Part shown: positions 1-58,917 of the stretch, one piece after another
Layout of the letters: each line of letters begins with the position of its first letter
How positions within the stretch are numbered: the first letter of the stretch is position 1
Source: Gnetum montanum
Lineage: Eukaryota; Plantae; Gnetophyta
Assembly: GCA_015680685.1 (NCBI GenBank)
Contig: MNCI01001745.1
Span: forward strand, 1,137,330-1,200,976
Length of the DNA stretch: 63,647 nt
Reading direction: 5' to 3'
Translations under genes and position numbers: made by a program
Notes under the pieces: model-generated
The model's database searches: none
What the model saw: the letters and a program-made list of their open reading frames with translations, nothing else
What the model was told of the DNA's origin: nothing

Positions 1-905
1 GAAGCTCTGGTAGATTTATCACTCCAGAGTTAGAATTTTTCCCATGTGCCCACAGTAGGAGTCCTAGAGTGAACGGCTCTTTATTCGAGTAGCTTGTAAC
101 CTGAACGCAAGTTGTGTACGATAATAAAGACAAAATTGATTGGATAAACCTTGCAGCATGTGGTTTTATTGTTGTTTATTTATTTCTTTCCTAGTGTGTA
201 CAAGTACGACTTGATTATGAGCAGCTACGGACGTGTACGGCTAATCAAGAAATCGGTTGCTTGTCGCAACGCGTGAGTACGACTTGACTACAAGCATTGA
301 CTGCTTGGTAACCCAGTAGCATATTCCAGGATTCTGTGCTTGGTAATCCCAGTGGTAGTTCAGTGTGTACGGCTAGTCAAGGAATCAGCTGCTCATCTCT
401 AGGCTAGAACGTGTGATAAGTACGACTTAGTTACGAGCACCCACGGGTGTGTACGGCTAGCTAAGGAATCGGCTGCTTATCACACTTAAGCTAAATAGGT
501 GCCTCAGTACGACCACTTCGAGCACTTGCGTTACGTGTGGTGATCCCAGTAACGATTAGCGTTTGGTAAGCCACAGTTGCATAGTTTAGGGTGTGTCCGG
601 TAAGTGGGAACGGATGCTGACGCTAGTTAATTTAGACTTAGGACATTAGTTAGAGTTAGCTTAGTTTCTCAACCCTTTCCTCTCATAGCTTAGAAGATAA
701 ACTAAAAAATACCAAAAAAATCACATACCTCAGACTTACTTAACCATACACCGTGACACTTACAAGCAAGCCTGGGAAGACAACAAACGATTAACCCCAA
801 GTGTTTCTTGTGGTGTTAAGGCATTTAGTCTGCGGAGTTCGACCGGATCGCGCATGCACGCTCGTATTCGTATGGTTGAGTGTAGGGGTACCTCGCCACT
901 CATCA
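1..905 (+). mobile_element. Young Ty3/gypsy LTR (Athila-like TGAT...ATCA termini), copy 1; the first ~117 bp lie outside the window
   Basis: Colinear with 23463-24364 at roughly 90% identity by eye. Ends ...CCACTCATCA at 905. Followed by GTATTAAAT with no PBS, so it is a 3' or solo LTR. CpG-rich against a CpG-depleted background. Confidence 0.9.
68..619 (+). ncRNA. Structured-RNA module array in LTR copy 1 (five hairpins with CGA / GWA(T)CGGC internal loops)
   Basis: Paired stems TCTTTATT/AATAAAGA, CTTGATTA/TAATCAAG, CTTGACTA/TAGTCAAG, CTTAGTTA/TAGCTAAG and CCACTT/AAGTGG, each flanked by near-invariant loop strands. Confidence 0.7.
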
Positions 906-16573: not shown

Positions 16574-17393
16574 AGCCTATGACCAAACATTCAGCTAAAA
16601 AAATATTTCAAAACATTTCCCAAAGGCCTTTTCCAAAACCTTTTTTTAAAACATTTTTCAAAAAAATTTTGAACCTTTTTCCAAATACCAATTCAATTAC
16701 ATTTCAAATTGAAAAACCTACAAACGTTTAACTTCAAAAACCAACGTTGGTGTTCAATCCCCCACAACCAACACCTAGTGTAGTTGTTATGGGTGAGTTG
16801 GGTTTTTACATCATTTTCACAGAAATTGTTGGACTTTTTAAGGCTAGCATAGTCAACACTTGAAATAGCAATTTTTACCCACCAAAACCTATGTTCAAGA
16901 TATCTTGAAAGTGAGCATAGATCCATAAAAAAATCCAAATATAGCTACTATGAAAATTTTGTAAGGAAGCTAGGCTAGACATTTCTAGGACTCTAGCGTA
17001 GTCCTAGGAAAATTGAAAATTTTCATATTTAATTTCTTAAAACAAACATACCTCCTTCAAGAGAAAAAAATCCTAGCTTGATTTTGGTAAGTGAAAACCA
17101 ACATAGTTTTGGATATACTGTGATCTATTGCACACTCCCTAGCATAGATCTTGCAAGTGAAACCAACATAGTTCTGGATATAAAATTTAAAATCATAACA
17201 TTATTTTCCTAAGTGTAGTATATACCATTTACACTTTAGTAGTAGTTTCAACCATTTTTTTCATTTATAACCAACTAAACCATTGGGAAATCCCACTTAT
17301 TGAAATGTTTACTAAAAATAGTAAAAGGACAAAACAAAATCTTTGATAATGCCTTTTAGCAAGTCCACAATTGTTTCTATTGACATGACAAAC

Positions 17394-20300
17394 ATGGCAT
17401 CTAGTCAAGATGGGGTAAGGATCTATGATCCAAAAGACCTTACTGTGGTTGAGCATAGACAATCACTTAGACAAAGAGGGCGAATCCCAAACTTTGTTTT
17501 ACTCACCGAAGAACATAATAACTATATCTTTGCTAAGATCCAAGCTAGATTACTCATTCCACATGCAAAGGCCAAAGCCAACCATAAGTATGAGTTGATT
17601 CACTATAATGGAAAAGTGTACATACCCTATCCCTATGAAAAAATACCATTGAAAAATGCTAATGTACACATACCCTCTTAATTAATTGAGAGAGACATAT
17701 CGAGTGAGAAGCCTAGTTCAGAGGACCTACATGAAAAACATGATGAATTTGAGGCAAAGCCTAAATTAGAAATTTTCATAGGAAGCCTATTCTAGCAAGC
17801 AGCCCATCAAACTACCACATCCACTTTGGCCTTGCCTATCTATTCCATGGGACAAAGATCTCAACCATCGTCTCCTATATATCCCAAAATGTTTGGGACT
17901 ACACTAGTTATACCAACACACTAGGCATAACCTGTGTCTCAAATAGGCTCCTATTTTTTCCATGCCTTTTTCCATGTAGCCTCAATCTATACAACCCTCT
18001 CACTGATGGTTCTCACCATTTCTTATCCTTTCTCTTTAACAGTGGAACCCACAACAGGACCACATGTAAACCAAGGAACATATACACTATTTGTTCTCTT
18101 TGTGCCTCAAGTACCAGCACAAACATCCTTTTCATTGTTTAGCACATCCATGACCACTATAACCTAGCCTCTTCCTTCTACACCTCAACCCATTATGAGG
18201 CCACAAGACTCTCAATTAACACCTCAATCATTCATACAAACATCACAATCCATGGGGATGCTCCAAGGATTAGATCAAACATTCCAGATGATTCAAGACT
18301 TGATAGAAGAATTACAGAAGCCTAAAGCCTCCACAACTCAAATGATAAAAATCATGTATTTTTATTAGGATGACTCAATTAGTCCTACCATCCCATAGAT
18401 AACTCTTTCATCAAGCATCCCTATACCTTAATTTACCAAGTACAATGGCAAAGGTGACCCTAATGCACACCTTATCACATTCCACTCTGAGTATTTATTG
18501 ATGCAAGCCTAGCTGCATACCATAAGGAAGGTTTTCCCTATGTCCCTTACTAGGAAAGCTTTGGATTGCTACCATGCACTACCAAGAGATCCATATCCTT
18601 ACTAGAATACTTAATTTCATAGTTCATTAAAAATTTCAAGTACAACTTGAAACCTAACATGATTCTTGACTAACTAATGAAGATTAAACAAGAACCCCTT
18701 AAGCTCATACAATTATTTTTACAATGATGGAATGCTCTTCTAAATCAGATTCTAGATCCAATAGCCAAGACTCACCTTCTTACCATATTGAAGAAGGTGG
18801 TTAATGATTTTATTAAGTCAAAACTTTACTATTTGGACCCATAGTCACTTAGCCAAGCATTTTCTCAAATTAAGAACATAGAGGATGTAGCTAAGGCCAG
18901 TCATGACCTAGCCTATGGGGCCTATAAAAATCAACACACAAGAAAGAATAATAATAAAATCAAGTAAGAGCATAAAACTATGGCTGTTGTAACAAAAGAA
19001 TCAAAACAAGTAGAGAGGTAGGGGTCACTGCTTTGCAACACATCTTTAGACTCATCACAACCATCTACTTCATATGCCCTAAATCAACCAAGGTCAAACT
19101 TTTGATGCAAGGATAGATATAAGTGCACAAGATTTCCTGTGAAGCCTTATGAGCTTAAAGAAAACTATACACAACGTAAGAAACTATTTGAGGAAGCTCA
19201 TAAGAGGTACAATCATCATTGCAACATAGTTAGAGATTCAAAAATGGCTACCAAAGATGATCAGAAGCTACCAAAGTACTTTATATTGGATAGGTTTTGC
19301 CATTATGATCAAATGGCCTGCCATGACACCTATTTTATCCTAGAATTAAAGGATGACCTCTAGAAGATGATAGACTATGAAGAGTTGGTGTTGAATGAGC
19401 CTAACTCTCTAAGAGCCAACAACAACTCTTACATTGTAGCCTTATTCATAGAAACCAAATAGTCTAATCTTCCTAGGGAATCATTTGTCATTAAGATGCC
19501 ACTAAGATCCCAAAACACAAAGCCTAGAGAGCCATTTGCCATTAGGATACCACCTCCTGTAACCCCTAAGAAGCCTTTCATCATACATGTCCCTTCTTTA
19601 GTGGCATCAACTTCACAACCAAGACCACAAGTTACCAATCCCCTAAAGCCTAGAAAACCATTTGTTATCTGGGTCCATTGATCTTGAATAAGTAATCCTA
19701 TAACAACCTATGATCAAAGCTCACCTATAGTGGCCCACAACTCTAAGGATAGCAAGAAACCATCACCCCAATGGTGACAAAAATTACTTGTTACCAAACC
19801 AACAACTAAGCCCACCAAAGGTGGCAAAAAATGAAAGGCTTCAAAGTTAACTAACTTACCTAGGTCTACACTAGAATTTACTACATCCATAGAAAAGGGG
19901 TACAAGGAACATATATCAAAACCTAGACAATAAACTCTAGGAAGAATGGAGGAAGTTAAAACCAATAAGGCCAAAAATTTTCACACCAAGGAAAAGAATT
20001 TCTACACAACAATGAAACAAGCCAGATGGTCATAAATAAAACAACACATGACCAAACTTGTATGACTTGATCATAACCTCTCGTGCACATAAGGATGCAC
20101 TAGCTCAAGTGTTAACCTCTATTCCTATGAGTAGAGACATGCTTGTCACTATAGAATCAATCAAATTTGTCATTGAGCAAGATTTTCTTAGGGAAAATGG
20201 GCATCAAACCATGCTCAACTTTCATGATAGTGAAGTTAATATTGACTCTCAAAATGGAGAGGTGCTATCCACTCCTCTGCCCATTACTATATGTGTTGGT

Positions 20301-20904
20301 GGGTACAAGGTTCATCAAGTTCATGTGGATGATGGGGCAATGACTAATGTGGTAGCATTTTCCATTGTTGGCAATCTAGGCTTAACCAAGAATATCTAAG
20401 CAACCACTACCTCAACACTCAAGTCATTTAATGGCTCACAAGTAGTGGTGTGAAGTTCAATCTCCTTGAACATCATGGTTGATGAGCAATTTCCTACATT
20501 TACCAACTTTGTAATGGTTGAGGAGACACATGGCTTCAACTTGATCTTATCAAGGCCATGATTAGCTAAGCTCAATGTAGTCTCATCCCCTATACATCAA
20601 GAGAGTCACTTACCCTATGAGGAAGGGGAAATTATCATTCATGGAGATAACATGTTACTAACTTCAATTAACTATGTCAGCATCGATTGAGGTTCAGAGG
20701 TGAAGTTTTAAAAGAAAACTCCTGATACATAGGTTGGAGCTACCAACAACAAAGATAACAATCATGCTAGCAATATCAACTCTATGACATGGGGTGATCA
20801 ACAAAAATGCATGTAGCTCACCATGTTGAACAAGTGAGATGGTGTACACAAGATCATGACAATGGAACTCATTGATCTATTGAAGATCAAGCAAAAATTT
20901 CATG
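17394..20904 (+). pseudogene. gag: gag-protease of element A (multiple stops and frameshifts)
   Basis: MASSQDGVRIYDPK...; FTKYNGKGDPNAHLITF...VFPMSLTRKALD (gag core); FCHYDQMACHDT..LKDDL (CHHC knuckle); VHQVHVDDGAMTNVV and LILSRP (aspartic protease). Confidence 0.85.
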
Positions 20905-21190: not shown

Positions 21191-23373
21191 GCATAACCTG
21201 TTTATAGTTGTTATTCCTTAGTCTACCTTTTGTTGGCCTAGTTAACTTACATTTTCACTTTACCGAATATTGCCATATCATCACATGATTCAACTAATTT
21301 AGCCTAGCATATCCTTATGACATGAACAAAACATAAAATAGAGAAGGCATGTAAAACTAAACATAGTCATGATTACATAGTGTGACAAAGGTTCAAACAC
21401 CATATAAAATGAACATAAGTCCAATAGCCATAGCTACACTATGTAGCAATAAAATAAAAAACAATAATAAACCATCTCTCAATAAAATCATCAAAAAAAA
21501 TAAACTAGCCAAAGATATAATCAATAGTTGGTGCTAGGGTGTAATTGGGGATGGTGAAGGATCACTTTTGTCTTGACCACTAGGGATCACTGCCATCATC
21601 TATATCCTGCAATGATTAAAATAAAACATGTTAATAACCAATAGAGGCTTTAACATTGTAATAAAAATTCCAAAAACAAACCAAAACCCTAAAATTAGGC
21701 ATATACAGTGTAGTCCTAAGCCTATAAAAAATTTTAACAAAAATCCAAAACCATAACCACATCCAACAAAAATTACACAAAAAACTTGGAATAGTAGAAA
21801 ATGGCCATAGTGAATCATTGATAAAAAATATGATTTTTTTTTAATATATCAAAAATAATGTCAAACCCTTCATAACACCTCCAAGGATCCCTAAGAACCT
21901 AGTACATTGGTTAAAAATGTTTTGCAAAGTGTCAACATTGCTCATATTCATAGGGTAAAGCCATAAAAGCCAAGAAGTTCACCATACATAGATCTACGAA
22001 AAAAATCACCAAAAATTAACTATGTAACCAACATTGATGATTCCATAGTTTTTGAAGTCTTAAACCATAAAATAAAAATCCAAAACTTGAAAACCCAAAA
22101 ATTCCTAGCCGTTTTTTGCAGAAAAAAGATACCAAAATAACATGAAAAATAGCCATAAACTGAAAATCCATTACACACTAGATTATGGAAACATTTGTAG
22201 AAAATCAACCATAGGTCAAAATTTAGTGGTTTAAAAACTATTTCAACCAATAAACATAGTACTACAACCCTATTGTCATAAAAATTATAAAATGCTAACC
22301 ATTTGCATACAAAAATAATACAAAAGTGGTGTTTCTTTTTTGCTGAAAACTACAGAAAAAACACCTAGGAAAGACTAAAATAAATTTTTAATTCAATATA
22401 CATCAATCCCAAAACAAGAGAAATATTGAAAACCCATAAACATAGCCTAGATCTAACATTTGGATTTTACAAAATTCAAATATACCTAATACACAAACCC
22501 ACACAACCAAAAATCCCTAGGAATCCAATGAAACTTTGCATGAAATGGATAAGAGTTGTGTACTTGGGGATCATGGTAGATGAACCTTCAATGATCAAGT
22601 ATCATCAAAGGTGGAAGAGGCCTTATGTACAAGCATCAACCTCCTGTAAGGCTAGATTCTTGTTGATTGCAACCCTCCTCTATGACATCTTGAACAAGTA
22701 GCACTAAAACTAGTAAAACCTTTAGACTTCTGGGGCCTCTTGCGATAATTGTGCCTACTCCTTGGGATAGAAAGGCAAGACTACATTGGGAATAAGTGTG
22801 GTGGAGGAAATAGTAGGATCAAAACTCTGGTGCTATGTGTTGAAGCGTGGGAGTGATGAAAGAATTATGATTTGTGTAAACTTGTAGTTTGGAAAATACT
22901 TCCAAACTTATGCACCTACCTGCAAAACCTTGGTTTTCTCAAACTGTTCATCCAAGTTTCACTAAACTCAATGATCATAATTATAAATTAAAACTACACT
23001 TGGTAGGTGGAAAATCAATTCATACAAAAACTCAAACTTAAGGTGGACCCCACTGGATGCCTCTACAATAAGCCAATGGAAATCCTAAAAAACTTAGGGT
23101 TTCAGTGTCTCCATGGTGACTACACTAGGGTTTAATCATCTACAAGCCTTGAAGTTCATTCTAAACCCCAAATTCTATCAAAACCCATTTCACAACTATC
23201 CATACATGTCATGAGACCTTATGCCTAAAATGGAAAACTAGGTGTTAACATTGATGGAAACTAAACACTAAGGAAGGCTAAAAAACATATCAAAACCTAC
23301 CATTTTGGTAACTATGCTAACTAGAATTTTGACTACATTACCTAGTGATGAGACGCAACTTGCACTAGGCCAC

Positions 23374-23420
23374 GATATCGCGTATGCGATATCACGTCCC
23401 GCCGCCATATCTATAAATAA
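23374..23420 (+). promoter_or_regulatory. LTR U3 promoter: palindrome GATATCGC-GTAT-GCGATATC and TATA box (TATAAATA, 23412-23419)
   Basis: Read directly from the sequence. A pyrimidine-rich initiator-like tract lies ~25-30 nt downstream. Confidence 0.65.
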
Positions 23421-23530
23421 GAGGCAGCACTCCCTTCATTTCCCAATCCTGGCTAGTGTAGCGAAGCTCTGGTAGATTGATCACTCCAGAGTTAGAATTT
23501 TTCCCCATGTGCCCGCAGTAGGAGTCCTAG

Positions 23531-24079
23531 AGTGAACGGCTCTTTATTCGAGCAGCTTGTAACCTGAACCCAAGTTGTGTACGGCAATAAAGACGAACTT
23601 GTTTGGATAAACCTTGCAGCACGTGGTTTCATTTATTGCTTTATTTCCTGCTTTCCTAGTGCGTTCAAGTACGACTTGATTATGAGCTTCTACGGACGTG
23701 TACGGCTAGTCAAGGAATCGGCTGCTTGACGCAATGCATGAGTACGACTCAATTACGAGCATTGGATGCTTGGTAACCCAGTAGCGTATTCCAGGATTCT
23801 GCGCTTGGTAACTCCCGGGTCTAATGTGTACGGCTAGTTGAGGAATCGGCTGCTCATTGCTAGGCTAGATCGTGTGATAAGTACGACTTAGTTACGAGCA
23901 CCCATGGGTGTGTACGGCTGGCTAAGGAATCGGCTGCTTATCACACGTAGGCTAAATAGGTGCCTCAGTACGACCACTTCGAGCACTTGCGTTACGTGTG
24001 GCGATCCCAGTAACGATTAGCGTTTGGTAAGCTGCAGTTGCATAGTTCAGGGTGTGTCCAGTAAGTGGGAACGGATGCT
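23531..24079 (+). ncRNA. Structured-RNA module array in the solo LTR (hairpins 23531-23609, 23660-23733, 23731-23860, 23871-23947, 23967-24079)
   Basis: Stems differ in sequence between units but always pair. Loop strands CGA and GTACGGC/GAATCGGC/GAACGGC are conserved. Compensatory changes are seen relative to copy 1. Confidence 0.75.
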
Positions 24080-27000
24080 AACGCTAGTTAATTTAGACTT
24101 AGATTTTAGTTAGAGTTAGCTTAGTTTCTCAACCCTTTCCCCTGGTAGCATAGAAGATAAGCCGAAAATACCCAAAAAATCACATACCTCAGACTTGCTT
24201 AACCATACACCGTGACACTTACAAGCAAGCCTGGGAAGACAACGAACGATTAACCCCAAGTGTTTCTTGTGGTGTTAAGGTATTTAGTCTGCGGAGTTCG
24301 ACCGGATCGCGCGTGTACGCTCATATTCGTATGGTTGAGTGTAGGGGTATCTCGCCACTCATCACCTAGCATAGTTCCAAGTTTAATTGTGTACTCTACC
24401 ATTAAACAAACTCCCAACTAACTTTGAAATCATCACACCACACCCCAAATCCTAACCACAGCTTCTAGTAGCTTCGAAATTCCACAAAACTGGTCAAAGA
24501 GCACCAAAGATCATTTCTCTTACATGGGATACATTGTGGCAGGCTTCACCTATTATGGCCTACATATTCCCAACATATTTGAGTAAGAAATGAACGCCAA
24601 AATATGGAAATAGCCTCCAAAATGATGCACCTTGAACCCCAAAGTCACTGGTAAGCCTGAAACCCAAGGAAATCAAGCAAAAGTAGAAACTTTCCTACTC
24701 CCACCTTCAAACTATGCTAGTGATGGCCATGAATACACTTACCTATGTATTCCTCGTGTATTTGGAAGAAGATATATCAATAAAAGTGAAAAATAATCTC
24801 TAACTTAACATATCTTAACCTTAAAAATCCTTCAAAAACTTTGATGACCTTGCATTGGCAAATTGTAGGACAACAGAAGGTAAAAGCTCATTTCCACCTT
24901 GGGTGTACATTGAGGAAGCTTGGGACTATGCTAGCCAACATAGCCTAAGTGTAGTTCCATTTTAAAGGCATGAAAATAGGTCACCAACATGCCAAATTAG
25001 CTTTTGGAAGCATCATCTTAGTTCTAAACCTTGCCAAAGACTTTAGAGACCAATAAATCATAAAAACCAAGTTAAAAATCAATAGAACTTAGCCTACACC
25101 CCTCAACTATGCTAGGATTACATTGGTCACTATAGTCTAAGGGTGTTGGATTAGTCTAGAACTCAAATTATCATTAAAGCTAATCATCTTGGACTTGAAA
25201 CCCTACTTCTAAGCACTAGTGATCGAAATACTTGAAAACCTAGTCGATTAACCATGGAATTTCACCAAAATTAAAGATTCATCTTGTGACTATGCTAGAG
25301 GAGACCTAGACTATGCTAGCCAATGTAGTCCCAATGTAGTCATGAACATAGGATGATTTCACTAATAATTTGACCCTCCAAGTAGTCCAAAGCTTGACTA
25401 GGAAACCCAAAACATTGTTTGGCCTTACCCGTACAATTTCACCTTATTATGATCATGGGAATGCTAGATTCCATTCATCTACATGAGGTAGGCCTAGAAC
25501 TATTCTAGCCAATGTACTCCCAACATAGTCTCTACCTCAAAATGTTTGGCCAAAAATTTATTTCTTGAAGCCTAGATCCTTGAAATCCTAAAGTGAGTTA
25601 TGGTGGCCAACATAGTTATGAGGTGTGCATGCCCAAATGCCATTTACAATGGCCTATTTTAACTTCCAAATGTTTAACCCTTCTCTTCTAGGACCGTGTG
25701 CTACCCTAGGAAGCTACCAAAGCACTAGTTTTCACTCTAAAACCCCATAAACCCATTTCTCACATGCATCAACATTAGGACTACAATAGTCAATATAGTC
25801 CCAGTGTAGTCATAAGTTTTGGCACCATCTTCACCTTCTATAGGGTGAAAACAAGGTCAAAATGCACTAATCCTCCACCCTAGTCCATTATGTAAGCCAT
25901 ACAGACCATTAAGAACTCATAACTAGCCACAAAAAACCTAGAAAATCACCTATGGATGTTGACTATGTTAGGGCCTATTTTGACTATGCTAGTCAATGTA
26001 GTCCCTAGTTGGGGCCAATGTAATCATAATAAAAGATGTCATTTATACCTTCAAACAACCTTATAATGACCACAACAAATTCCCAAAATCTTCTATTAGC
26101 CCCATATCCTTCCACTATGGCCTACTAAGGCCTAAAACTAGCAAAATCTAACCATAATTGACCAATATTGATAATGTTTTACCATATGTTTCCTGTCTGA
26201 ATTGGTATGTCCTTGTTCCATCAAATGTTTCTATCATTGACATAATTTGTACCTTGGCCTATTTTAGCATTAACTAATGTCATTGAACATTAAAAGTACC
26301 TTATTTAATTTTACCCAACTTCATTCCATGAATATTAGCTTGAATATGATCTTCTTTAACCACAATTTGGTCATCATTTCACCTCATTTGGTTTTTATTT
26401 GGCTTTGTATTAACCTTATTTACCATATCATCTCACTTGTGGCCTTAATTACCCTATTTGACCATTGTTGTATGTCATTTGATGGGGTTTGACCATCCCT
26501 TGACCATTTTAGGCATCATTTGACCATCATATGATTTGCTAAGGACTTAAACTAGCAACATGGCCTACTAAGGCCTAAAACTGGTAATGTGTAACCATAG
26601 TTGATCATGTTTAACCTTATACTATCTTAATTTACCCCTAGTGATCACTACTAACCATGTTTCAACCTGGTTTGGATTTAATTTAATTTTTCTACTTAAC
26701 TTCACTTTATTATCAAAGTATTTTACATTTTTACATGTTTAAGCTTATACTATCTTAATTTAAGCCTAAAACTGGTAAAGTGTAATCATAGTTGATCATG
26801 TTTAAGCTTATACTATCTTAATTTACCCCTAGTGATCACTGCCACTTGATGTGCTTATGTTGTCATGCAAGAATAAGCTAGGAGGATAAGAAAGCAAATT
26901 CAACTAGTATTAAAGCCTAAATAACCCCCTCTCATGATTTTGTTAAACTAAGTTAACCTTACATGCCTAAATCTTAAGCCTTAAAGCCATTCTACCATAC

Positions 27001-36948: not shown

Positions 36949-37179
36949 ATTAGTATCAAAGAAAATCATGACTCAAGGTCCATTCAAAACCATGGATCAA
37001 CTAAAACATCAATCTAATGATGAACCATAAAGACACAACATAAGGAAAATCATTTCTCATCATTGGATGCATCACACATCTAAGAATATCATTGACCAAT
37101 GAAGATCTAATTACACCTCATCAAGACTCATCAATTTCATGAGATGTTGATAAGATAAGAATACACCAATCTAGGTAAC

Positions 37180-39304
37180 TCTTACCCATCAATTTATTAT
37201 TGCTTGCCTTCATAAATATGGTTTTCACATTAATTTTATTAAAATTTTGGAGACTCTTTTTACCGACGCCAATGCCCTTGTGGCTACTAACATTGGCTTA
37301 ACTAATTGCTTCAAGCTTGAGTGCTATGTTAGGCAAGGTTGTCCTCTTGCTCCTTACCTCTTCATTATTGCTGCGGACTTTTTGTGTCATGCTATTCATA
37401 AGGATAAGGAACAAAATTTGCTTCAAGGTATTTTCATTGATCATAATGTTCCTTCCTTATTGAATATGCATTTTGTTGATGACTCATTCTTTATGATAAA
37501 AAATGATGCTCTTATTGTTGATCGTCTTTTTTATTGCATTGATCAATATTGTAGACTCTCTGGCTCTCAAATTAATTGGTTCAAATCTTGTATCTTTTGC
37601 AACAAATAGGTTCAAGCCTGGGCGTTGTCTAAGTCTTGGCAATTTTTAGGAAAGGATCAAGTTTTTAAGCTTCTTGGCATTCCCTTTTCTTTTGGCGGAT
37701 CATCCAAAACATTATGGGATGTCACTGTGAAGAAACTTGAACAAAAGCTTATAAAGTGGAAGGAAAAGAAGCTATCTATGGCTGGTAAATTTATTGTCTG
37801 AAAGCATATTCTCCAAGCTACCCATGTGTATTACTCTTCTTGTTGGGCTCTTAGCATCTCTGCTTATCGTCACATTGATCAACTAGTCAAACACTTTCTT
37901 TGGAACAGCAGCCATACTAAGAAAGGATTTTGTCAGGTTGCTTGGAACATCTGTACTTCTCATAAAGAGGACAACGGTTTGGGCCTCATTAATTGCTACA
38001 AATAGGGCATTGTGTTATGTGCCAAATGTATGGCCAAATGCTTATCTGGCTCTAAACCTTGGAAGCTTCTTTTCCTTAAATGCATATAGCTTGGGAAGCC
38101 CAAAGGTAGTAATTATTGGAATAATACTCATTTCCTTAAATGGATTCTTTTTCCCATTGGTATTACCATTTCTGGTTCTATTGTCATCAAACACATTTGG
38201 AAGGCATGGTGTTATATTAGTTAGTTTTGGAACTTTAACACTATCACTATTTCTTTCTCTACACTTGATAAGCTTTCTCCTTGGTGGATTCCCATTCACA
38301 ATGAACCTTGGGCCATTAAGCATCCTCGTATATGTAGCACTTGGGATAAGCTTGGCATCTCCTCCCTCTCCTCTCTTTGCATTCATAATCATTGGATTAC
38401 TTGGAATGAATGTCACCTTATTTACGGTATTAATGTTGCTCAAAAGTCTACCTTTTGTACGATTTTGGATAGCTTGAACAAAAATGTTGTTATTCAAGAC
38501 TCCCTTGATGGTTTTTTAGATCTTTCTTGGATTTCTGGTCATCAAGTTTTTCCCTCTCATTCTAAGATTTTTTACTCTCTTATTAATTCCACTACTAATA
38601 TTTGGCCTAGATTCAACCATCTTTGGCAAGTTAATCTTAATGTGCAGGTTTGGAAGCAACGTATTCAGACTATTTGGACTACTCCTACTTCTTCAAAGAT
38701 TCAACATTTTCTGTGGTATTTGATTCACCAAGGTCTTCCTGTGGGTGTTCGGCACTCTCATCTGGGGGTTCCTGACCCACGATGTCCTATTTGTCACAGG
38801 GAAGATGCATTTACTCACTGTTTTTTTTCTTGTCCCCTTGCTCATAGCTCTTGGATTTGGTGTGGTAGGTTTTTACAGGGTTTTTGACCAAGCTTGGATT
38901 AGGTTCTTTTTGGTGACACTCCGCATCTTCAAGGCTCTTTGATTTATATCGGGTGTCACCTTCATCCCCTTATTCTCCATGCTATCTAGAAATTTATATC
39001 GGGTGTCACCTTCAACGTGATTCTCCTACTAATATTCTCTCCTTGTCTATTCAAGGAGACATTGTTCAACAACTAATGTTGCAGTTGAGCTCTTGAACTT
39101 TTTCTCTCCCATTTTTCCTAATTTCTTGTAGTTTCTCCTCTTTTGAGGTGAGCTTTTCCCCTTTGGCTGTTAGTGTCTCCTTCTTTGAGACCTCTTCATC
39201 TGTTTTGACCCTCTCTTTTATCCCCTTTGTACTATTTTCTTTTTTCTCTATTAATTAAATTTATTTTTTGGGGCCTGACACCCCCCAACTCTTACCGATC
39301 TAAA
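37180..39304 (+). mobile_element. 5'-truncated L1-clade LINE (RT C-terminal half and zf-RVT)
   Basis: VRQGCPLAPYLF...HFVDDS...SGSQINWFKS; KIQHFLW....GLPVG......CPICHREDAFTHCFFSC. 3' end TTACCGATCTAAA. Confidence 0.9.
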
Positions 39305-42959: not shown

Positions 42960-45900
42960 TGAAACACCACAAAAATTTGCATGTTATAGCCAATTTTCAT
43001 CATGTAGCTTTCACCCCATGAAACTCAAGGTAAAACTTCATTGTAAATGTAAAGATTGTAACCCATAGTGGGAAATTTTACATACTTTATACTTTTGGGG
43101 TTGAAAAATGTTTTAAAAGTGTTTAAAGTCTTGTTCCCCAAGTAAACAAAGTTACCTAGTATCTGTATTTGGGCTTGTGCGATCAAAAATTCCTTTTAAA
43201 ATACCAAAAAAAGGTAATTTAATGGGTTTTATTGGGGGTATACACTTTTCTATGCTGAAAACACATATAGGGGGATAAATCTAACCTACCCCAAGTGTGG
43301 AAGGGTGGGGGTCTTGGAAACTTGCTCCCCTCAATGTGGGGACTACATGCACAGTGTAGAAATCTTCCCCCCTCATTGTGAAAGTTTCTTCCTAGTATGG
43401 AGTCTTCATCCCTAGTGTTGAAAATTGCAACCCCCTAGCATGAAAGCTACAAAAGCCAAAATTCATCACTTTATTCACTTTGACATTGACCAACCACTTC
43501 AACAAGCATGGTGGAGATCTTAGTGCAAAAGATTCATCTCTAGCATGGAAGGTGCAGCATGATTACTATTTATAGTAAATGGAATGGCCATGGGGAAAAG
43601 CATTTACTATGTATAGTAACACCCTAAATTTGGGCATCCATCTCACCTGAATGAGGAAAACATTTGGCAACCAATTTGTTGCCATTTCATAGCCATTTTG
43701 CAGCCCCATTCATGGCCCAAAACCTATAAAAACTAGCCTTAAACACCATTTATGGCTTTAGTAATTTTTAGTAGGTTCCATTCTTTTATCACTTGAATAA
43801 ATTGAGCATGCATACATTTTCCAAGCAATAATTCCACACCTAGTGCATTTTCAAGCACTCAAGGGCTCTTGAAATCTCCCACATTTGCATTCTCTTAAAA
43901 CCCAATGTGGAAGCATTTTCACCCTAAGATTTGTGGATTTTTGATGTCAACATTGCACTTTTGGAATTTTTGGACCCCAACATGAAGCAATCTCACATCA
44001 AAATTTTCCTCTTTTCTAATCTCCCAGTAATAGCCAATGTTGTAGATTTGAGAATGCAGCACCATAGGTTCAATAGCATCTAGAGTGGTAGGACATTTGG
44101 ATCATGGAGTTAACTACATGGACTTCAATAGATCCTGAACCCCTGTCCAACTAAACCCCCTTGCTACCCATTTAGGCATCATTTTTACACATTTCTCGAA
44201 CTTATTCTTTATTTTTTCTCATTAAAATTTCAGGTTTTGGGTTTTGTGTGCAAGATATATTTGTTTATTTGGTATTTGAATTTGTTATTATTTTTTCTTG
44301 CATTCCATTTTATTAGACTATTTTTCAAACCTCCTAAGTTTCTAGTTGATCTACTAAACTAGCTAGGGCACCTTAGATTCCATTTTCATAGAGGCCCTAA
44401 GGATTCAAGGTTGAGGATTTTTATGCATTGTATCCATAGTTATGTGCGTTATTTGAATCTATTATTAGTTTTTCTTGCATTCCATTTTATTAGACTATTT
44501 TACAAACCTCATAAGTTTCTAGTTGATCTACCAAATTGGCTGGGGCACCTTAGATCCCATTTTCATAGAGGCCCTAAGGATTCAAGGTTGGGGATTTCTA
44601 TGCACCATATCCATCGTTCTTTATTCTAGTGATTGATTTTTTTCAATCGTAATAGTTTTCTTGGTGCTAGAAAGAGCATCTTCATTCAAATTTTATGACT
44701 AGATTTTTTCTTCTTCATTTCCAACATTACCATTTTCAAGCTTTTCTTTGATTTCTTGTAGCCAAGACTTTGAAGAACCTACATTGGTCTTTTCCCGCTA
44801 TGACCAAAACTGTAGCATGGAAGTTGCAAGTGGTTGGGTGGTGGCTTTTCACAACAACTGCTTTGAATTTTTTCAGCCCAAAATCCAATGTGAAAACCTT
44901 CCCCCCACCCCCTCCCCCTTTTTTTTCTTTTTCTACCAATTTTTATAGCTTCCAAAGTGGGTGTTTCAACAATTCTAGAAATTACCAAACTTCCAAAAGT
45001 TAGCTTCCCCCCATTTTTTCTCAAGCTAAGAAAATTGACAACCTACCAAAACTAAGTTCTTAGTGGGGGAAATACTGAATTTTTACTTTCATTTTCAGAC
45101 TTTTCCCCTTGTCAATGTTGGGTTAGGAAGTGTGAGATTCCCATTATCTCACCCCCACCCCCTTCTTTCCCCTCTTTCCATACCCTGCATAGAATCAATT
45201 GGAAAGGATAGTATGGAAGAGGCTTAATACCAACTTCCCCAAAGCCAACATTGCAAATTGAAAGCCTTATTTCATATTTTTGTAGAAAAAACTCCTAAAA
45301 GATCAATGCTACCCCTTCTTCCTTATGACCAAAGCTACAGCATGGAAGCTGTAGGTAGTTAGGGGGTGGATTTTTGTAGCAATTGCTATGGATTTCTCTA
45401 CCCTAAAGCTAGTGTTGAAACCTTTCCCCTTTTCTTTTTTGTTTCCAAATTCATTCTTTTTAGCTTCTAAAGTTGGTGGTGCAGCCCTTCTATGAATTAC
45501 CAAACTTCTAGAAGTTAGCTTCCCCCCATTTTTCCAAGCAAAGAAACTTGGTAACCTACCAAAACCATGTTTTAGTGAAAAATCCCAACTTTCCACTTTG
45601 ATTTTTAGCCTTTTCCCCATCAAAATTGGAATAGAAGAGGTGAGATTCTTCTTATGTCATTTCCCTTTCTTTTCCTCCTATCATACCTAGTGTAGAGGTA
45701 GTTGGGAGGCCAACTTGGGAAAGGCTTGACACCAACATTTTCAACTTTTCATTTTTAGCAAAGGGTAAACCCCTCTTATCCCCAACTTACTAATTATAGT
45801 AATTACTTCATTTCTAGCCATTATTTTTTATTTAAATGTTTTTGAATTCCATTTACTAGAATTTACTTTTATTTTATCATTTATAGCTTTTTTTTAAGCC

Positions 45901-47245
45901 ATTCTTAGCACCATAGCCATGTTTTTCTAGCAAACTACAAAGTTGCCCCTCACCTTCACTAGCAAAGGTCCTAGCCAATAAGCCATGAGGGTATATGACT
46001 CCAAAGACCCTGTTGACATCAAATGTAGGTAATCTTTGAGAGTTAGAGGGAAAATTCATGATTTTGTAGTAATAAATGAAGATCGATATAACTTCATCTA
46101 CACCAAAATACAGGCTAGCATGTTGATTTCACATTTAGAAGCAGAAGCCAAAAGGGAGTTCAAACTTATCTATCATAATGGTAAGGAATACATCTCTTCC
46201 TCCTATGAATAGATACCTATATCTAATATCTATGTGGGTATACTAGCCTAATTTATTGAGATGGAGGAAGAGGATGAAAAACATAGCTCTAAGAAATAAC
46301 AAGAAGAGAAGGATAAATTTAGGCAAAATCTGAGTCCAAAAACATCCTGGGGGGATTGTTCCAAAAAGCAACCTCCAAGGTCATTGAGCCTTCCTCTAAT
46401 GCTTTTATTTTCTCCATGGGCATGGTGTTACCATTTTCCACTTATTTCTACCCAACCACAGCTAGTCGCACACCAATGATAGCCATGCATCAAACACAAT
46501 CAATGCCACAAGCTATGATCCATAATCCATTCATGTCATTTACCACATGACCTCAATCTATGCAACCATAAATGGTGTTTTTTACCATCACAAATCCATT
46601 AACTACTTGTGCAGGGCCCACAATTTGACCCTAAGCAACTCAAGGATCACACAACCCATTTATCCCATTTGTGCCTTAAGTATTAACACAAACATCCTTT
46701 TCCTTGTTTAGCCCACAAGCTACAACCATAATGAAACCACTTCCTTCTATCATGAAACACATAGCAAGGCCACAAGCCTCACAACAAATACCACAATCTT
46801 ATGTACATACCCCATAACTAACAGGGCCACCACAGGGCTTTGATCAAGCCTTCCAAATGATACAAGACCTGATCGAGGAGTTTAAAAGGCTTAAATCCTC
46901 TACCTCATAGACTATCAAGATTATGGACTTCTACTAGGATGATCCCATAAGTCCTATAGTCCCATCCTTGACACTTCCTCTTGGTGTCCCTATTCTCTAA
47001 TTTAGCAAATATAATAGAGAAGGTGATCCTAATGTTCACCTTATTACCTTTTAATCCAAATGTTTACTCTTACAGCCATGGCCTCATACCATCATGAGGA
47101 TTTTCTTTATTTCTTTTACTAGGAAAGCACTTGACTAGTACCACGTGTTACCTAGGGGATCCATATCCTCTTTGGAGGACTTCATTGTCCAGTTTGTCAA
47201 CCACTTCAAGTATAACATGAAACTGAACACAACACTTGACCAACT
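42960..47245 (+). mobile_element. Tat/Ogre-type element B: 5' LTR 42960-44654, PBS 44662-44676, 5' UTR, gag interrupted by element C
   Basis: Starts TGAAACACCAC. LTR end TTTCAATCGTAATA. gag FSKYNREGDPNVHLITF is homologous to A and C. Confidence 0.85.
44270..44620 (+). repeat. ~178-bp tandem duplication within LTR B
   Basis: Two near-identical units (TTCTTGCATTCCATTTTATTAGACTATTTT...GGCCCTAAGGATTCAAGGTTG). Confidence 0.9.
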
Positions 47246-50200
47246 TGAAATACCACAAAAACTTGCATGTTATAACTAATCTTCATCATGTAGCTTTCAC
47301 CCCATGAAAATCAATATAAAGCTTCATTTTAAATGTGAAAATTATAACCCATAGTGGACAATTTCACATACTTTATACTTTTGGGACCAAAAAATACCTT
47401 ATAAGTGGCCAAAGCCTTATTCCCCAAGTGAAAACAATTACCTAGTGTCTATATTTGGGCTTGGGGGAGGGGTCAAAAATGCCTTTTGAAATGCAAAAAA
47501 AGGAAATTTGATGGGTTTTATGGGGGATATAAATTTCTCTATGCTAGAAACACATGCATGGGGATAGATCTCACCTACGCCCAACGTGAAAGGATGGGGG
47601 TTTTGGAAACTTTCCCCCTTCAATGTGGAGACCACATGCACAGCCTGGAAACCTTTCCCCTTAGCATGGAAGTTTTCCCTATCATGGAATCTTCATCCCT
47701 AGTGTAAAAAATTACATCCCCCAACATGGAAGCCACAAAATCCAAAATTCATCACTTCATGCAGTTCAATGTTGACTAGCCACTTTAGTAAGCATGGTGG
47801 AGAGATTATTGTAAAAGATTCATCTGTAGCATTAAAGGTATGTCTTGGTTACTATTTATAATAAATGGAATGGCCATTAGTGAAATCACTTACTATCTAT
47901 AGTAACCCCCCAAATTTGGGCATCCAACTCACCTGAATTTAGTAGTCAATTTATAGCCATTTTTGTAGCTAAATCATAGCCATTTTGCAGTGCCATTCAT
48001 GGCCCAAAGAAACTTTAAAAACTAGCCTCCAACATAATTTATAGGTTCAACATTTTTGACAAGATTTAGCCCTTTACATTGTTAAGAAAATTCTCAAAAA
48101 CGTTCAACCATTTTTTCACAATTTCACACTTGGGACATTTTTAAGCACTCAAGGGTTATTGTAATCTCCCATGTTTGCATCCTCATGAACCCTATAGTGG
48201 AAGCATAATCACCTTGAGATTTGTGGATTTTTGGTATCAACACTACACTTCTAGGATTTCCAAACCCCAATGTGGAGCAACCTAGCATCCAAATTTTCCA
48301 CTCCTCTCACCTTCCAACAGTGATCCAACTTGCAAAAGTGACGTTGTAGTAGCTAAGGAAGGTTCAATAGCATCAGGAGTGGCTTAGTACCTAGATCATG
48401 GAGCAGATCCCATTAACTTCAATAGGATTTAAACTCCTACACTAGTGAACCCCTTTTTCTTGCCCACTTAAGCACCATTTGTATGCATTTCTTGAATTTA
48501 TTATTTATTTTCTTTCTCAATAAAGTTTTAAATTTTGGGTTTTTTGTACAAAATATATTTGTTATTATCTATGCATTATTTCAGATCTGCTATCAATTTT
48601 ACATCCTATTTCTTTCTTTCTTTTATTTATTCCCATGTTTTGCATTTCATAAGTCCTTCGTTGATTTTCCAGATCAACCAAAGTATCTTGAATCCCATTT
48701 TTCTCATGGAAGCCCTCAGGATTTTGGGTTGGGAAACTACTGCATTAAGGATCCTTAGTTTTTCAAGTGACCAAGGTTTTCAATCACAACAATTTTCCTT
48801 GAGACTAAAAGGATGGCCTTTGCCTAAATTCTATGACCATATTTGTTCCTTTTGTTGCCATTTGCAACCTTTTCCTTGATTTTTGTAGTCAAAACCTTTG
48901 AATAATCAATGTTGATCTTTCCCCCCCTGTGATCAAAATTATAGCATGGAAGTTGTAGGTGGTTGGGTTTGGCTTTTTACAGCACTTGCTATGAATTTTA
49001 CAGCCCAAAGCTAGCGTTGATATCTCTACCCCTTATTTTTTTCTTTTTACTATCAAAACTTTATTCTCTAGTTTCTAAAGTGGATGGTTCAACTCTTCCA
49101 TAAGTTGGCTTCCTCCCATTTTTCTAAGTTGAGACAATTAGTAGCTAGCTAAAACCAATTTTAGTTGAAAAGCACCAACTTTTCACTTTGGTTTTTAGCC
49201 TTCCCCTCATCAACATTGAAGTAGGAGGTGTGACATTCCCATCATCTCACCCCCCTTCTCTTCCCCCTTTATCATACCTAGCATGGAAGTAGCTAGGAAG
49301 CCAAGGCTGGTGAGGTTTGTTACCAATTTAATGATCAAACATGATTTTATTGCAAGTTGAAAGCCATTTTATATATTTTTTTAAGCCAAAACCTCTAAGG
49401 AATCCAATGTTGCCTTTAGACCCCTATAGTAGAAACCTTAGCATGGAAGCTGCAAGTGGTTTGGGTGCTAAAATTTCACAACATCTGCTGTGAATTTCTA
49501 GAGCAAAGCCATCGTGGAGGCCTTAATAACCATTTAATTTTTTCTACCATATTTTTTGCAACTAAATTAATGTTGGTTTTCATACCAGCCAAACCTACTA
49601 TTCCCTCCTTTATGGTAAAAGTTGGAAACTTGCCAAAAACATCTATGGAAACTACCAAGGTTTCATTTTGGTCTTCAAACTTCTGTGCTCAACCCACCCC
49701 ACTCCCACCACCCCCCACCCCCTCGCCCCCCACCCCCTCGCNNNNNNNNNNNNNNNNNNNNNNNNNNNNNNNNNNNNNNNNNNNNNNNNNNNNNNNNNNN
49801 NNNNNNNNNNNNNNNNNNNNNNNNNNNNNNNNNNNNNNNNNNNNNNNNNNNNNNNNNNNNNNNNNNNNNNNNNNNNNNNNACTCTCCAACATTGAAATAA
49901 GAATGTGTGATATTTTCACTACCTCACCCCTCTTCTTTCCTTGCCTCTCCCTCCCACCCTACCATACGTAGTGTAGAGGTAGTTGGGAGGCCAACTTAGG
50001 TGAGGTTTGAAACCAATTTTTTTAATATTCCATTTATGGTAAAGGGGTAAACCCCCCTTATCCCACATTTACTAATTATATTAAGTACATCATTTTTTGC
50101 CATTTTCATTTTCTTTAATAATTTTTGAATTCCATTCACTAGAAGTTACTCCTATTTTACCATTTATAACCTATTTTTAAGCCATTCTTAGTACTATAGC

Positions 50201-53200
50201 CATGTCTTTCCAAAAATTCACCAAATTACCCTTCATCCTCACTAGCAAGGATCATAACCAACAAGCCATGAGGATGTATGATTCCAAAGTCCTAGTCATC
50301 ATTGAGTGTAGGCAATCTTTAAGGATCAAAGGGAAGTGTCTTGATTTTTCAGTCATAAATGAAGATTGTTATAACTTCATTTGTGCTAAATACAAGCAAG
50401 CATGTTAATTCCCTAAATTAAAGTTGAGGCCAAAAATAATTTTGAGCTCATACATAAGCATGGAAAGGAGTACATCCTTTTCCCATATGACCAAATTCTC
50501 CTTAACAATATCTATTCTAGCATCCTAGGCCAATTGATTATCATGGAAGAGGAAGATGACAAGCCTAGCTTTGAGGAACAACAGGAAGAGAAGGATGAAT
50601 TTAAGGTAGAATATAAGCCTAAAAACATCCTTGGAGGACTATTCCAACAAACATTCCCCAAAGTCACAATGCCTTCCTCTAATGCTTTTGTTTTCTTCAT
50701 GGGCATGGCGCCACCATCTTCCACTCCTTCCTACCCTACTATGGTAAATCCCACACATGTTATAATGACACATCACACTTAACTAATGCCACAAACAAAC
50801 AACATTAGCACATCAATATCATTTATAACATAGGCTCAATATATAAAACCATCAATAGTCGTTGTTACCAGCACAAATCCATTAACTACTCACGTAGGGT
50901 CCACCATGGCATCTCAAGCAACATAGGGGTCATACACCCCATTTGTCTCATTTGTGCCTCAAATACTAGCACAAATATATTTTCCTTTATTTGGCCCACA
51001 AGACACAACTATAATGTAACCTCTTCCTTCTATCATGCAATCCATAACAAGGACACAAGCCTCACAATAGACACCACAACCTTATGTACAAACCTCACAA
51101 CCTATGGGGCCACCATAAGGCTTGGATCAAGCCTTCCAAATTATTCAAGACCTAATAGAGGAGTTGAAAAGGCTTAAAGACTCTACCATAAAAACTATCA
51201 ATATTATGAACTTCTTCTAGGAAAATCCCATAAGTCATGTAGTCCCACCCTTCACACTTCCTCCTAGTGTTCCCATTCCACAATTTAGCAAATATAATGG
51301 AGAAGGTTACCATAATGCTCACCTTAATATATTTTGATTAGAATGTTTAGTCTTGCATCTATGTTCTATACCATCATGAGGATTTTCCCTATGTCTTTGA
51401 TTGGGAAAGCACTTGATTGGTATTGCACATTACCGAGAGGATCCATATCCTCTTTGGAGGACTTAGTAGCCTAATTTGTCAACTACCTCAAGTATAACTT
51501 GAAGCCTAATACAATGCTTGGTCAACTCATGATGGTCAAGTAGGGATCCTTAGAACCTATACAATAATTCATTCAGTGGTGGAATGAACTATTAAATGAA
51601 ATACCAAATTCCATGGTTGAAGCCCACTTGTTAGCCATAGTCAAGGGAGTAGTTAATGACTTCATCAAGTCCAAACTCTACTACCTTGATCCATAATCTC
51701 TTAGCCAAGTGTTCTTGCAAACTAAAAACATAGAGGATGCTATGGATGCCAAACATGATCCAACCTATACAAAATATAAAAACCAACACACTCAAAGAGA
51801 CAAAGAAAAGAGAAAACACAACAACACTACCATAGTAATTGTAACTATGGAAAAAGAGACCACAAACCAAGGGCCAAAGTTCAATTTGCCAAAGCATCAC
51901 CAATGATTGTAGTAATCAACCATTAACTTTTGGTACCACTACATCAAAAACAAATAGGCCTTACTTTGAAATTAAGGATAGGTCTAAATACACTACATTT
52001 CCATTAAATCCATCCAAGTTGCTAGACTAAGTACTAAGAAATGGGCGCATGAAACAAAAACAAATGACCAAAGCTGCTTAAAAGAAACACGAGCAACTAT
52101 GTGAAATAGGAAAAGATTCCATTGAGGCAATGAAGGATTATCCCCATTTGCCTAGATACCTAAAGCTAGATCACTTTTTCCATTATCATCAATTTTCTAG
52201 TCATGACACAGAATTCTTCCATGTGCTAAAGGATGACCTACAAAGGATGATAGATAGGGGGGAATTGGTCTTAGATGCTTCTAACCTAGTTCAACCACAA
52301 AACTAGTTGATGCAAGTCTACAAAGATGCATTGAATGCTAATGATATCCCCTATGTTCTTTTAGCATTCAACATCAATGATAATCGAAGACCTAGAAGAA
52401 AACCATTCGTGATTCAAGTACCCCTCTACAATGAAAGGGCTTCATCAACTTTCCATAGCTCAAGATCCCACTTCATTATGAGAGTACCATCACAAATGCC
52501 TCTAAGGAAACCTTTTTTCATCAAGGTCTCCCAACCCAATACTACCCAAAAAACTATAGCTCAACCAACTGGACAAATAGCCCTTATGGTGGCCAATGCT
52601 ACTACCTCTTCCTTACAACCAATAGTTGAAAACCAATAGCCAAACAAAGGAATAAACATAAGAAAAAGCCTAATAATAAGGGAGACAAACATAAAGTGGT
52701 ATAAAAGGAAGTGGGTCCATCGAAGCCCACTTCCATTTTGGCTATACCCATGACCTCCTCTATTCCAACCTCTTCAACCAACAAGCCACAAGAGGACACC
52801 AAAGCCAACAACCAAAACAACAAGGAAAAGCCACAACAACTATAGCCTAAAGTTGAAGTTCACATTTTGGGACACATGAATAAAGTAAAGAACAATCAGG
52901 ATCACAAGCCCATGGCCAATGATAGAAACTTCCTCAATGCACTGGACCAAATCAGGCAATCCCTTAAGTAGAAAAACACAACCCAAAGCTTGAATGACTT
53001 GATCATGACTTCTGCCACATATCATGAGGCTCTAGTCAAAATCTTAACCTCCATACCTATTAGTGAGGATATTCCTACTAATGAGGAAGCCATCCAAGAA
53101 GTGATGATTCATCCCTCACTAGAGGAGTAGAAGTCAACACCCCTAACATTTTGTGATAGTGAAATTAAGGTTAATCCTTAGAATGGCAACGTGACTGCAA

Positions 53201-58400: not shown

Positions 58401-58917
58401 CGTAATCAATAGCCCTAATGAAACCTGCTTGGTAGAGCTTTGAGATTTCATTGTGAACTTCCAAGGCCAAATTAGCTCGAATCTTTCACACTTTTTGCTT
58501 AACTAGTCTAATGGTAGGATCCAATATGATGTTGTGTTGGACTAGACATGGATCTAGGCCCAACATATCTTCATATGACTAGGAAAATGCCTTAAGGTTA
58601 GTTGTAAGATTTTGGTGATACCTTGAGCATATTGAGGCTTGAGTGAGGAACTTAGTTTAAGGATTTTCTCCTCACCACTATGTGTTGCGATAAGAACCTC
58701 AACTAGAGAATCTTCAATTATGTCTCTTGCTTCTAAATTAAGGTTTTAACTGGGTTTTTAGGCCATTCTAGAGTTTTCTCTATTGAGGCTATGTGGTCTA
58801 CAAGACTCTTAGGCTCAAGATCTAGGTAATCAGGTCAATACACTATTTAATATCATTGTGAGGTTCATGTAGATACAAATGCAAACTAATTTGCTCCTAG
58901 GTACTCATACTTTAACC
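55477..58917 (-). pseudogene. pol: pol of element D: RT - RNase H - additional RNase H - integrase
   Basis: WVSNIVVVPKKNG..CINFQDLNKA..LSFMDGFLGYNQI; YVDEI; LGFVIS..GIHLDPDKVKAI; WGLDIIEP...STKWVEAIPL; YYPQANRQ; FLANWEGSF. Confidence 0.92.
56893..57198 (-). pseudogene. Additional (archaeal-type) RNase H domain, diagnostic of Tat/Ogre elements
   Basis: INFDRA...CTNNIAEYEGLIRGIMVAHDLGIRYIAIKGNSQLMFNQV, located between the native RH and the integrase. Confidence 0.9.

Follow-up and report, generated by a model that had tools for sequence, protein, structure and literature searches.

Repeated internal-loop RNA modules in the R/U5 region of an Athila-like LTR from Gnetum montanum: a candidate protein-docking leader

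A solo long terminal repeat (LTR) in the genome of Gnetum montanum carries, downstream of its TATA box, an array of ten nearly identical copies of one small internal-loop RNA module, predicted to lie on five hairpins. This array in the R/U5 region of an Athila-like LTR is real and apparently undescribed, and its function is at present a candidate one. The kind of signal is already known, namely the cis-acting leader signals of LTR elements. Little is known about how plant LTR retrotransposons choose their own RNA for packaging or avoid the 5' poly(A) stop. The array represents a natural stem-swap experiment on this subject, in which a motif of 10–11 nt is repeated ten times on exchangeable stems around a mapped R/U5 boundary. 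"The window" below means the whole stretch of DNA analysed, 63,647 nucleotides in length.

Host LTR and its surroundings

The TG...CA ends with inverted termini, together with identical 5-bp flanks at 23341–23345 and 24365–24369 that represent the target duplication, identify positions 23346–24364 as a solo LTR. A second copy opens the window.

23346..24364, + strand: solo LTR, 1,019 bp, TG...CA ends, 5-bp inverted termini; Athila-like Ty3/gypsy by the primer site of other copies
1..905, + strand: second LTR copy, more decayed, 91% identity; its 5' end lies beyond the window and no primer site follows it
23412..23419, + strand: TATA box, recognized from the sequence

The solo LTR has an observed/expected CpG ratio of 1.01; the flanks have 0.06–0.09 and the whole window 0.15, and this contrast suggests that the LTR is young. 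Transcription would start near 23440, and U3 would thus comprise only about 95 bp. CpG-rich palindromes at 23370–23400 are found in this very short U3; they show opposite-strand joints, vary between subfamilies and recall the repeated motifs of Sireviruses. The array itself shares with the Sirevirus motifs the clustering of CpG-rich repeats in a plant LTR. However, the latter, in the part of PMC2829016 devoted to them, are DNA palindromes of Ty1/copia elements that precede the TATA box, whereas the array follows it and has asymmetric, strand-specific motifs. A nearer parallel to the Sirevirus motifs is provided by the U3 palindromes.

The remainder of the window consists of decayed transposon sequence. 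Pieces of Ty3/gypsy reverse transcriptase and RNase-H-like sequence, a LINE-like reverse transcriptase and what may be gag/protease remains from older elements lie at 56896–58590 (− strand), 37175–38884 (+ strand) and 17325–20396 (+ strand). Positions 42960–51527, 44273–44618 and 61721–62418 contain a diverged direct repeat, whose period is 4.28 kb, and two tandem arrays (177–181 bp) that look unrelated.

The LTR family is abundant. It occurs in whole or in part in 20 sequencing runs (12 studies, 9 organisms), with at least half of its words present in 12. In a DNA run, 18,758 contigs were mapped onto 579 bases of the LTR, a figure which is not a copy number.

Hairpins and modules

A preliminary description of this DNA proposed ten modules on five hairpins in the LTR, downstream of the TATA box. 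All ten, along with the quoted stems, are located there at the following positions.

23530..23600, + strand: hairpin 1, in R; mirror modules 23534–40/23594–96 and 23549–51/23579–85 around an 8-bp stem containing AAUAAA
23660..23733, + strand: hairpin 2, in U5; modules 23672–74/23715–22 and 23683–85/23700–06; z −2.1
23738..23857, + strand: hairpin 3, in U5; modules 23745–47/23843–50 and 23756–58/23828–34; long tip with a second module type at 23778–23808
23871..23947, + strand: hairpin 4, in U5; modules 23884–86/23927–34 and 23895–97/23912–18; z −4.0
23964..24082, + strand: hairpin 5, in U5; 6-bp middle stem, divergent modules 23971–73/24069–75 and 23980–82/24056–62; second module type at 24007–24027

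The short strand of the module, described as 5'-CGA-3', is present in nine of the ten copies; the exception is TGA at 23683, where 94% of the DNA depth (run X6) is C. A long strand resembling G(T/A)A(T)CGGC is found in all ten, the inner module of hairpin 5 being the most divergent (at 24060, within this module, 87% of the reads of RNA run X24 have G). Middle stems of 8, 8, 8, 8 and 6 bp pair at 38 of 38 positions, and the outer module of hairpin 1 is mirrored, as the description held. A model built from hairpins 2–5 detects hairpin 1 (19 bits, a rough E of 0.005) despite its unrelated stems.

In the full transcript context the middle stems of hairpins 1–4 pair at P ≥ 0.98, while hairpin 5 has zero probability in this copy. 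As proposed, it lies 5.8 kcal/mol above the optimum here and is predicted in the other copy, at 503–621; at 24060 and 24080 the alleles of the solo LTR are minority ones, and the family-majority alleles are needed for hairpin 5 to form. The hairpin 1 stem reaches 0.97–0.99 in three transcript contexts. In hairpin 3 the middle stem pairs at P 0.98 and the outer stem at P 0.18 in the full context, and the inner stem of hairpin 2 retains only the 2 pairs adjoining the loop in the solo LTR. By folding energy, hairpins 2 and 4 are individually significant and hairpins 1, 3 and 5 are not.

Within the loops, the energy model lets the two CG dinucleotides pair, which divides the module into a 2-nt bulge, a CG/CG helix and either a 1x3 loop rich in purines or a 3-nt bulge. 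The module is better drawn in this way than as a single open loop. The CG/CG pairs are never swapped in the ten modules, unlike the stem pairs, and this points to base-specific reading. The spacing from one short strand to the next is 11 nt in hairpins 2–4, which is one turn of A-form RNA, and 9 nt in hairpin 5.

Two established motifs were considered for the module and rejected. A kink-turn is formed by a 3-nt bulge 5' of tandem G-A/A-G pairs, and its descriptor gives four weak sites in the LTR, none of them at a module. The sarcin-ricin (bulged-G) motif consists of AGUA facing GAA. This combination is found at the four outer modules of hairpins 2–5, but there AGUA is tied up in the covarying closing stem, and the inner modules lack it.

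A second recurring module is seen at the tips of hairpins 3 and 5 (23778–23808 and 24007–24027; 313–343 and 546–566 in the other copy). It comprises CCA, a 2-nt GU bulge, a variable paired stem and UGG, and a further stem variant of it appears in the loose ends of contigs from runs X13 and X14 behind 23811. Some contigs skip the tip of hairpin 3 (23764–23823) or the whole of hairpins 3–4 (23719–23961); tip length and unit number therefore vary within the family.

Transcription and the R/U5 boundary

Sense transcription of the region, which the preliminary description presupposed, is borne out for the LTR family, whose RNA is mostly sense. Raw RNA reads span the entire LTR and none lie on its flanks, the read depth beginning and ending at 23346 and 24364. 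Transcription is therefore seen for the family and not for the locus 23346–24364 itself; 176 of 4333 and 20 of 3014 reads match this locus at ≥ 99%. In RNA run X21 the counts on the two strands are 1026 versus 80 at 23504–47 and 233 versus 26 at 23856–99 (X24 is unstranded). This bias, together with the A-tail described below, identifies the + strand as the RNA.

23586..23591, + strand: AAUAAA poly(A) signal in hairpin 1, with 5 of 6 bases predicted to be paired
23608..23611, + strand: poly(A) site, that is the R/U5 boundary; in run X21 an A-tail follows 23611 in 197 reads
23622..23657, + strand: U/GU-rich stretch 3' of the cleavage site, recognized from the sequence; a likely downstream element

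The cleavage site lies 17–20 nt 3' of AAUAAA and before the U-rich stretch, and only three genomic A follow 23611 in either copy of the window. The site is placed by one run, X21, with no multi-molecule end among those listed. Across it the sense depth falls from 734 to 61 (12-fold) in X21; the drop is about 3-fold in X24 and in the DNA run X6, where mapping may cause a dip. If this placement is accepted, R ends at about 23610, hairpin 1 belongs to R and eight modules belong to U5. The array is thus split into two modules in R and eight in the 750-nt U5 upstream of the primer site, and only read-through leaders would carry the eight U5 modules. An alternative fold in which the U-rich stretch captures AAUAAA was rejected, since its P falls below 0.01 once the upstream part of R is included.

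This layout raises an alternative for the main job of the array, namely the control of 5' polyadenylation or elongation, for which TAR and the polyA hairpin of HIV-1 and the nut sites of phage lambda are parallels. A protein bound to the nascent array could clamp the AAUAAA stem of hairpin 1 and so permit read-through of the 5' LTR. The signal does sit in an 8-bp stem between two mirror modules, the site downstream of it is used, the array directly follows the promoter, and the excerpted text of PMC2645353 describes a polyA hairpin in HIV-1 that masks AAUAAA. However, hairpin 1 and U5 are transcribed at the 3' LTR too, so that the array alone could not distinguish the two ends; pairing by itself can mask a signal without any ligand; and eight of the modules lie 3' of the cleavage site. 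As the main function, such control is a serious but unlikely alternative.

The R-U5 region also holds nine upstream AUGs, which together with the strong hairpins would block scanning. The array could accordingly be imagined as a translation element, acting by internal entry or shunting to bypass a leader of more than 900 nt. Ten interchangeable copies are atypical of internal entry sites, and no GT..AG splice-like joint occurs among the 15 joints listed of 20. We regard a translational role as quite improbable.

At 23856, the 3' foot of hairpin 3, 138 X21 reads start with foreign letters in front, which we take to resemble a template-switch adapter. This pile is possibly a reverse transcriptase stop, an RNA 5' end or PCR copies of one molecule. 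It is one of two observations that would suit a self-cleaving or otherwise catalytic RNA of the retrozyme kind, a suggestion of the preliminary description; the other is that plant LTR elements with hammerheads exist (PMC4918200). The suggestion finds no backing in the sequence. The LTR matches no Rfam ribozyme family, neither the hammerhead nor another small-ribozyme core, and contains no hammerhead core strings. Moreover, no multi-molecule start or end is listed among the RNA reads, and cleavage of the leader would separate R from the primer site. Catalysis is therefore extremely unlikely.

Evidence for selection on the sense RNA

The two-sided changes in the stems, the near-fixed loops and the restriction to the sense strand indicate selection on the array at the RNA level, in agreement with the preliminary description, which had argued for an RNA structure under selection rather than a DNA repeat.

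Covariation was assessed in an alignment of hairpins 2–5 from both LTR copies (8 rows), in which related rows inflate the score and the structure was read from the same rows. In it 148 of 154 cells are paired and 9 of 20 pairs are changed on both sides. The covariation score is 0.395 versus 0.193 for shuffled alignments, none of 500 of which reach it, and slid registers leave 27–42% paired. In units 2–4 of the solo LTR, 1 of 21 loop columns varies versus 19 of 40 stem columns (Fisher p 0.0005). The contrast is not significant in the decayed copy at 1–905 (5 of 21 versus 16 of 40, p 0.26), nor for all six units (2–4 of both copies; p 0.055). The loops are near-fixed though they bear CpG, in a flanking genome with a CpG ratio of 0.06–0.15.

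Strand specificity is apparent from the module descriptor (nine matches on the + strand and zero on the − strand) and from the 105 stem pairs, which include 19 G-U versus 1 A-C pair, a count that is partly circular. In a motif-blind scan, which looks for asymmetric loops that recur between stems of 5 bp, both loops emerge from the + strand of the LTR with three copies each, and its − strand yields none. Among 59 other 1-kb pieces of the window the scan reports a repeat in six, the sole threefold one being an A/T-only loop at 61121; in the decayed copy at 1–905 it detects no repeated loop.

Frequent variants of the family were also compared with the structure. For the region 34 of the 35 variants listed were classified, the omitted one (23623) lying outside stems and loops; those from RNA were drawn from 40 of 453 table rows. 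Thirteen fall in stems: seven keep or restore a pair, two keep it with a listed partner (23750/23840 and 23751/23839), and four break it, three of these at stem termini and one internally at 23987 (29% in X6). Linkage of partner variants is beyond the variant tables on which this classification is based. Of three loop variants two restore the motif and one (23594, 18%) damages it; the other 18 lie outside stems and loops. Several of the pair-keeping changes are G>A, that is ordinary deamination-type changes, and some of the paired variants could be products of unit exchange or artefacts of cross-mapping.

The same data bear on the opposite reading, in which the array has no RNA function and is a tandem-duplicated palindromic DNA unit maintained by template-switch repair or unit conversion, or a set of sites for a DNA factor. 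Hairpins 2–5 are clear duplicates of one unit, and the ten module copies are thus not independent; the folding energy of the 549-nt region is ordinary (z +0.9 and +0.7 versus shuffles); contigs that skip or repeat units exist. On the other hand, neither the loop asymmetry nor the G-U pairs would survive copying of one arm from the other, the mirrored module of hairpin 1 sits on unrelated stems, stems of 6 and 8 bp are both fully paired, and the − strand is empty. A purely DNA-level explanation is very unlikely.

Relationship to known RNA elements

The preliminary description compared the mirrored loops of hairpin 1 with the constitutive transport element (CTE) that binds NXF1. In the excerpt of PMC4377836, the CTE has two 16-nt loops, is located in the 3' UTR and binds NXF1. 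The MPMV CTE resembles the array in that identical internal loops are repeated on a hairpin with free stems, and hairpin 1 bears such a mirror pair. The likeness goes no further: the loops have 10–11 nt (3+7 or 3+8) rather than 16, they number ten rather than two, they are placed in the R/U5 leader rather than in a 3' UTR, and four of the hairpins are in tandem rather than mirror orientation.

The array might nevertheless act in CTE- or RRE-like fashion on unspliced RNA, promoting its nuclear export or stability once recognized by a host factor or by an extra-ORF protein of the element. To our knowledge, plants have no clear NXF1 orthologue. Such a role would be in line with repeated identical loops on long hairpins, which is the design of the CTE in the same excerpt of PMC4377836, and with the extra ORFs present in most OTA elements (PMC6317226, in the section available). 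The unlike size, number and position of the loops speak against it, and an export function appears rather improbable.

The 5' leader of HIV-1, as covered by the available portions of PMC2645353 and PMC8096270, offers further likenesses: an AAUAAA paired in an R hairpin, purine-rich asymmetric loops, and a long structured leader before the primer site. The plant LTR shares the polyA hairpin arrangement, since the AAUAAA that is used is paired in an R hairpin (by predicted pairing and the poly(A) reads of one run). There is no sequence likeness, and the plant array differs in having one loop ten times at fixed spacing; two of the copies bracket the poly(A) signal, and the U5, 750 nt long, holds the other eight.

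The belief expressed earlier that this is no known plant LTR motif agrees with the searches, in which neither an Rfam match nor a counterpart described in the open literature was found. Rfam gives no gathering-level match in the window and three chance matches (E 0.1–4.5) around the LTR. Searches of the open-access literature found no description of an RNA element in an Athila LTR. The strict hairpin pattern has zero matches in metagenome contigs, the family pattern zero in prokaryote genomes and the primer-site pattern zero in viral contigs. Loop-only patterns match 120 and 95 chance loci in viral contigs; a single weak module accompanies them in 0 of 120 and 2 of 95, and two-module hairpins in none.

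Proposed role of the array

Fixed loops on free stems, repeated and confined to the sense strand, make the array resemble a multivalent binding site. It is tentatively read, at somewhat less than an even chance, as a selected protein-docking leader, likely for the Gag of the element itself in packaging, Gag being a candidate ligand only. Gag and packaging are placed first because of precedents in HIV-1, where asymmetric purine-rich internal loops are Gag sites, and in Ty1, whose 5' end is required for packaging (both in the accessible part of PMC8096270).

In the proposed mechanism, the fixed loop bases on free stems would be bound sequence-specifically by one RNA-binding protein. With short strands spaced by 11 nt, one A-form turn, two such sites in each of hairpins 2–4 would face the same side of the helix. 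RNAs that terminate at the poly(A) site, as 3' ends and solo-LTR transcripts do, would carry two modules and a leader reaching the primer site ten, and this difference could provide selectivity by avidity. Gag docked on the array would mark the full-length RNA for packaging. Hairpin 1 may in addition damp the 5' poly(A) signal by pairing AAUAAA, as in HIV-1. We infer both the fold in vivo and each step from fold to ligand.

Retroviral packaging signals are mostly located downstream of the primer site, and the array lies upstream of it. The docking leader for Gag and the control of poly(A) read-through are mutually compatible. A combination of both could amount to a Tat/TAR- or Rev/RRE-like circuit based on a single new RNA motif, in which an element-encoded protein binds ten phased loops, two of them clamping the poly(A) signal; this is an unlikely possibility. 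If true, one ligand would couple read-through of the 5' LTR to the selection of full-length RNA, which would be picked out from a background of transcripts that come from very many decayed and solo copies. The array provides a compact ligand site that can be put directly to the test, a counterpart in plants of the HIV-1 polyA hairpin, and perhaps an RNA structural module of a new kind.

Lineage and distribution

RNA reads running off the 3' end of the LTR number 329 in X21 and 422 in X24, and about half of them (agreement 0.48 and 0.56) agree on one primer site. After these other LTR copies, beyond a short spacer, the reads show a site of the ATHILA type, for tRNA-Asn/Asp, which is the ATHILA primer type in the available text of bioRxiv 10.64898/2026.03.20.713144. 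The family is therefore called Athila-like, the primer site being the sole criterion for the name. A search for the primer tRNA gene gave eight matches, all bacterial and non-tRNA.

The LTR ends TGATG/CATCA and a length within 299–1,225 bp agree with the CRM chromoviruses, which, however, have a tRNA-Met primer site (PMC3059260, excerpt). The tRNA-Asn/Asp site rules out the CRM assignment. With ATHILA retrotransposons, on the other hand, the family shares the primer site sequence, an LTR of about 1 kb ending in ATCA, the 5-bp duplication and the occurrence of solo LTRs. No LTR RNA structure is described in the consulted portions of the two sources for these traits (bioRxiv 10.64898/2026.03.20.713144; PMC6317226).

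At least 111 other metagenome loci carry the same primer site, nearly all of them A/T-rich with LTR-like ends. The module is found in none of the 111 listed, many of which hold only part of the LTR; it is therefore not a general Athila packaging signal, and within this sample of at least 111 partly incomplete loci the array looks lineage-restricted. The covariance model has no match in 80 primer-site loci with filters. When 20 of these loci are searched without filters, its best score is 10 bits (E 2). In 58 upstream pieces of at least 600 nt from such loci, the repeated loops seen are A/T-rich ones, present in 15, and none is comparable to the module.

Downstream of the same primer site, Retrotrans_gag is encoded in four of six scanned loci. 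One further Athila-type LTR (locus L165, about 900–1070), in which the descriptor recognizes no stem-bearing module, contains several short GAACGG-containing repeats in its U5.
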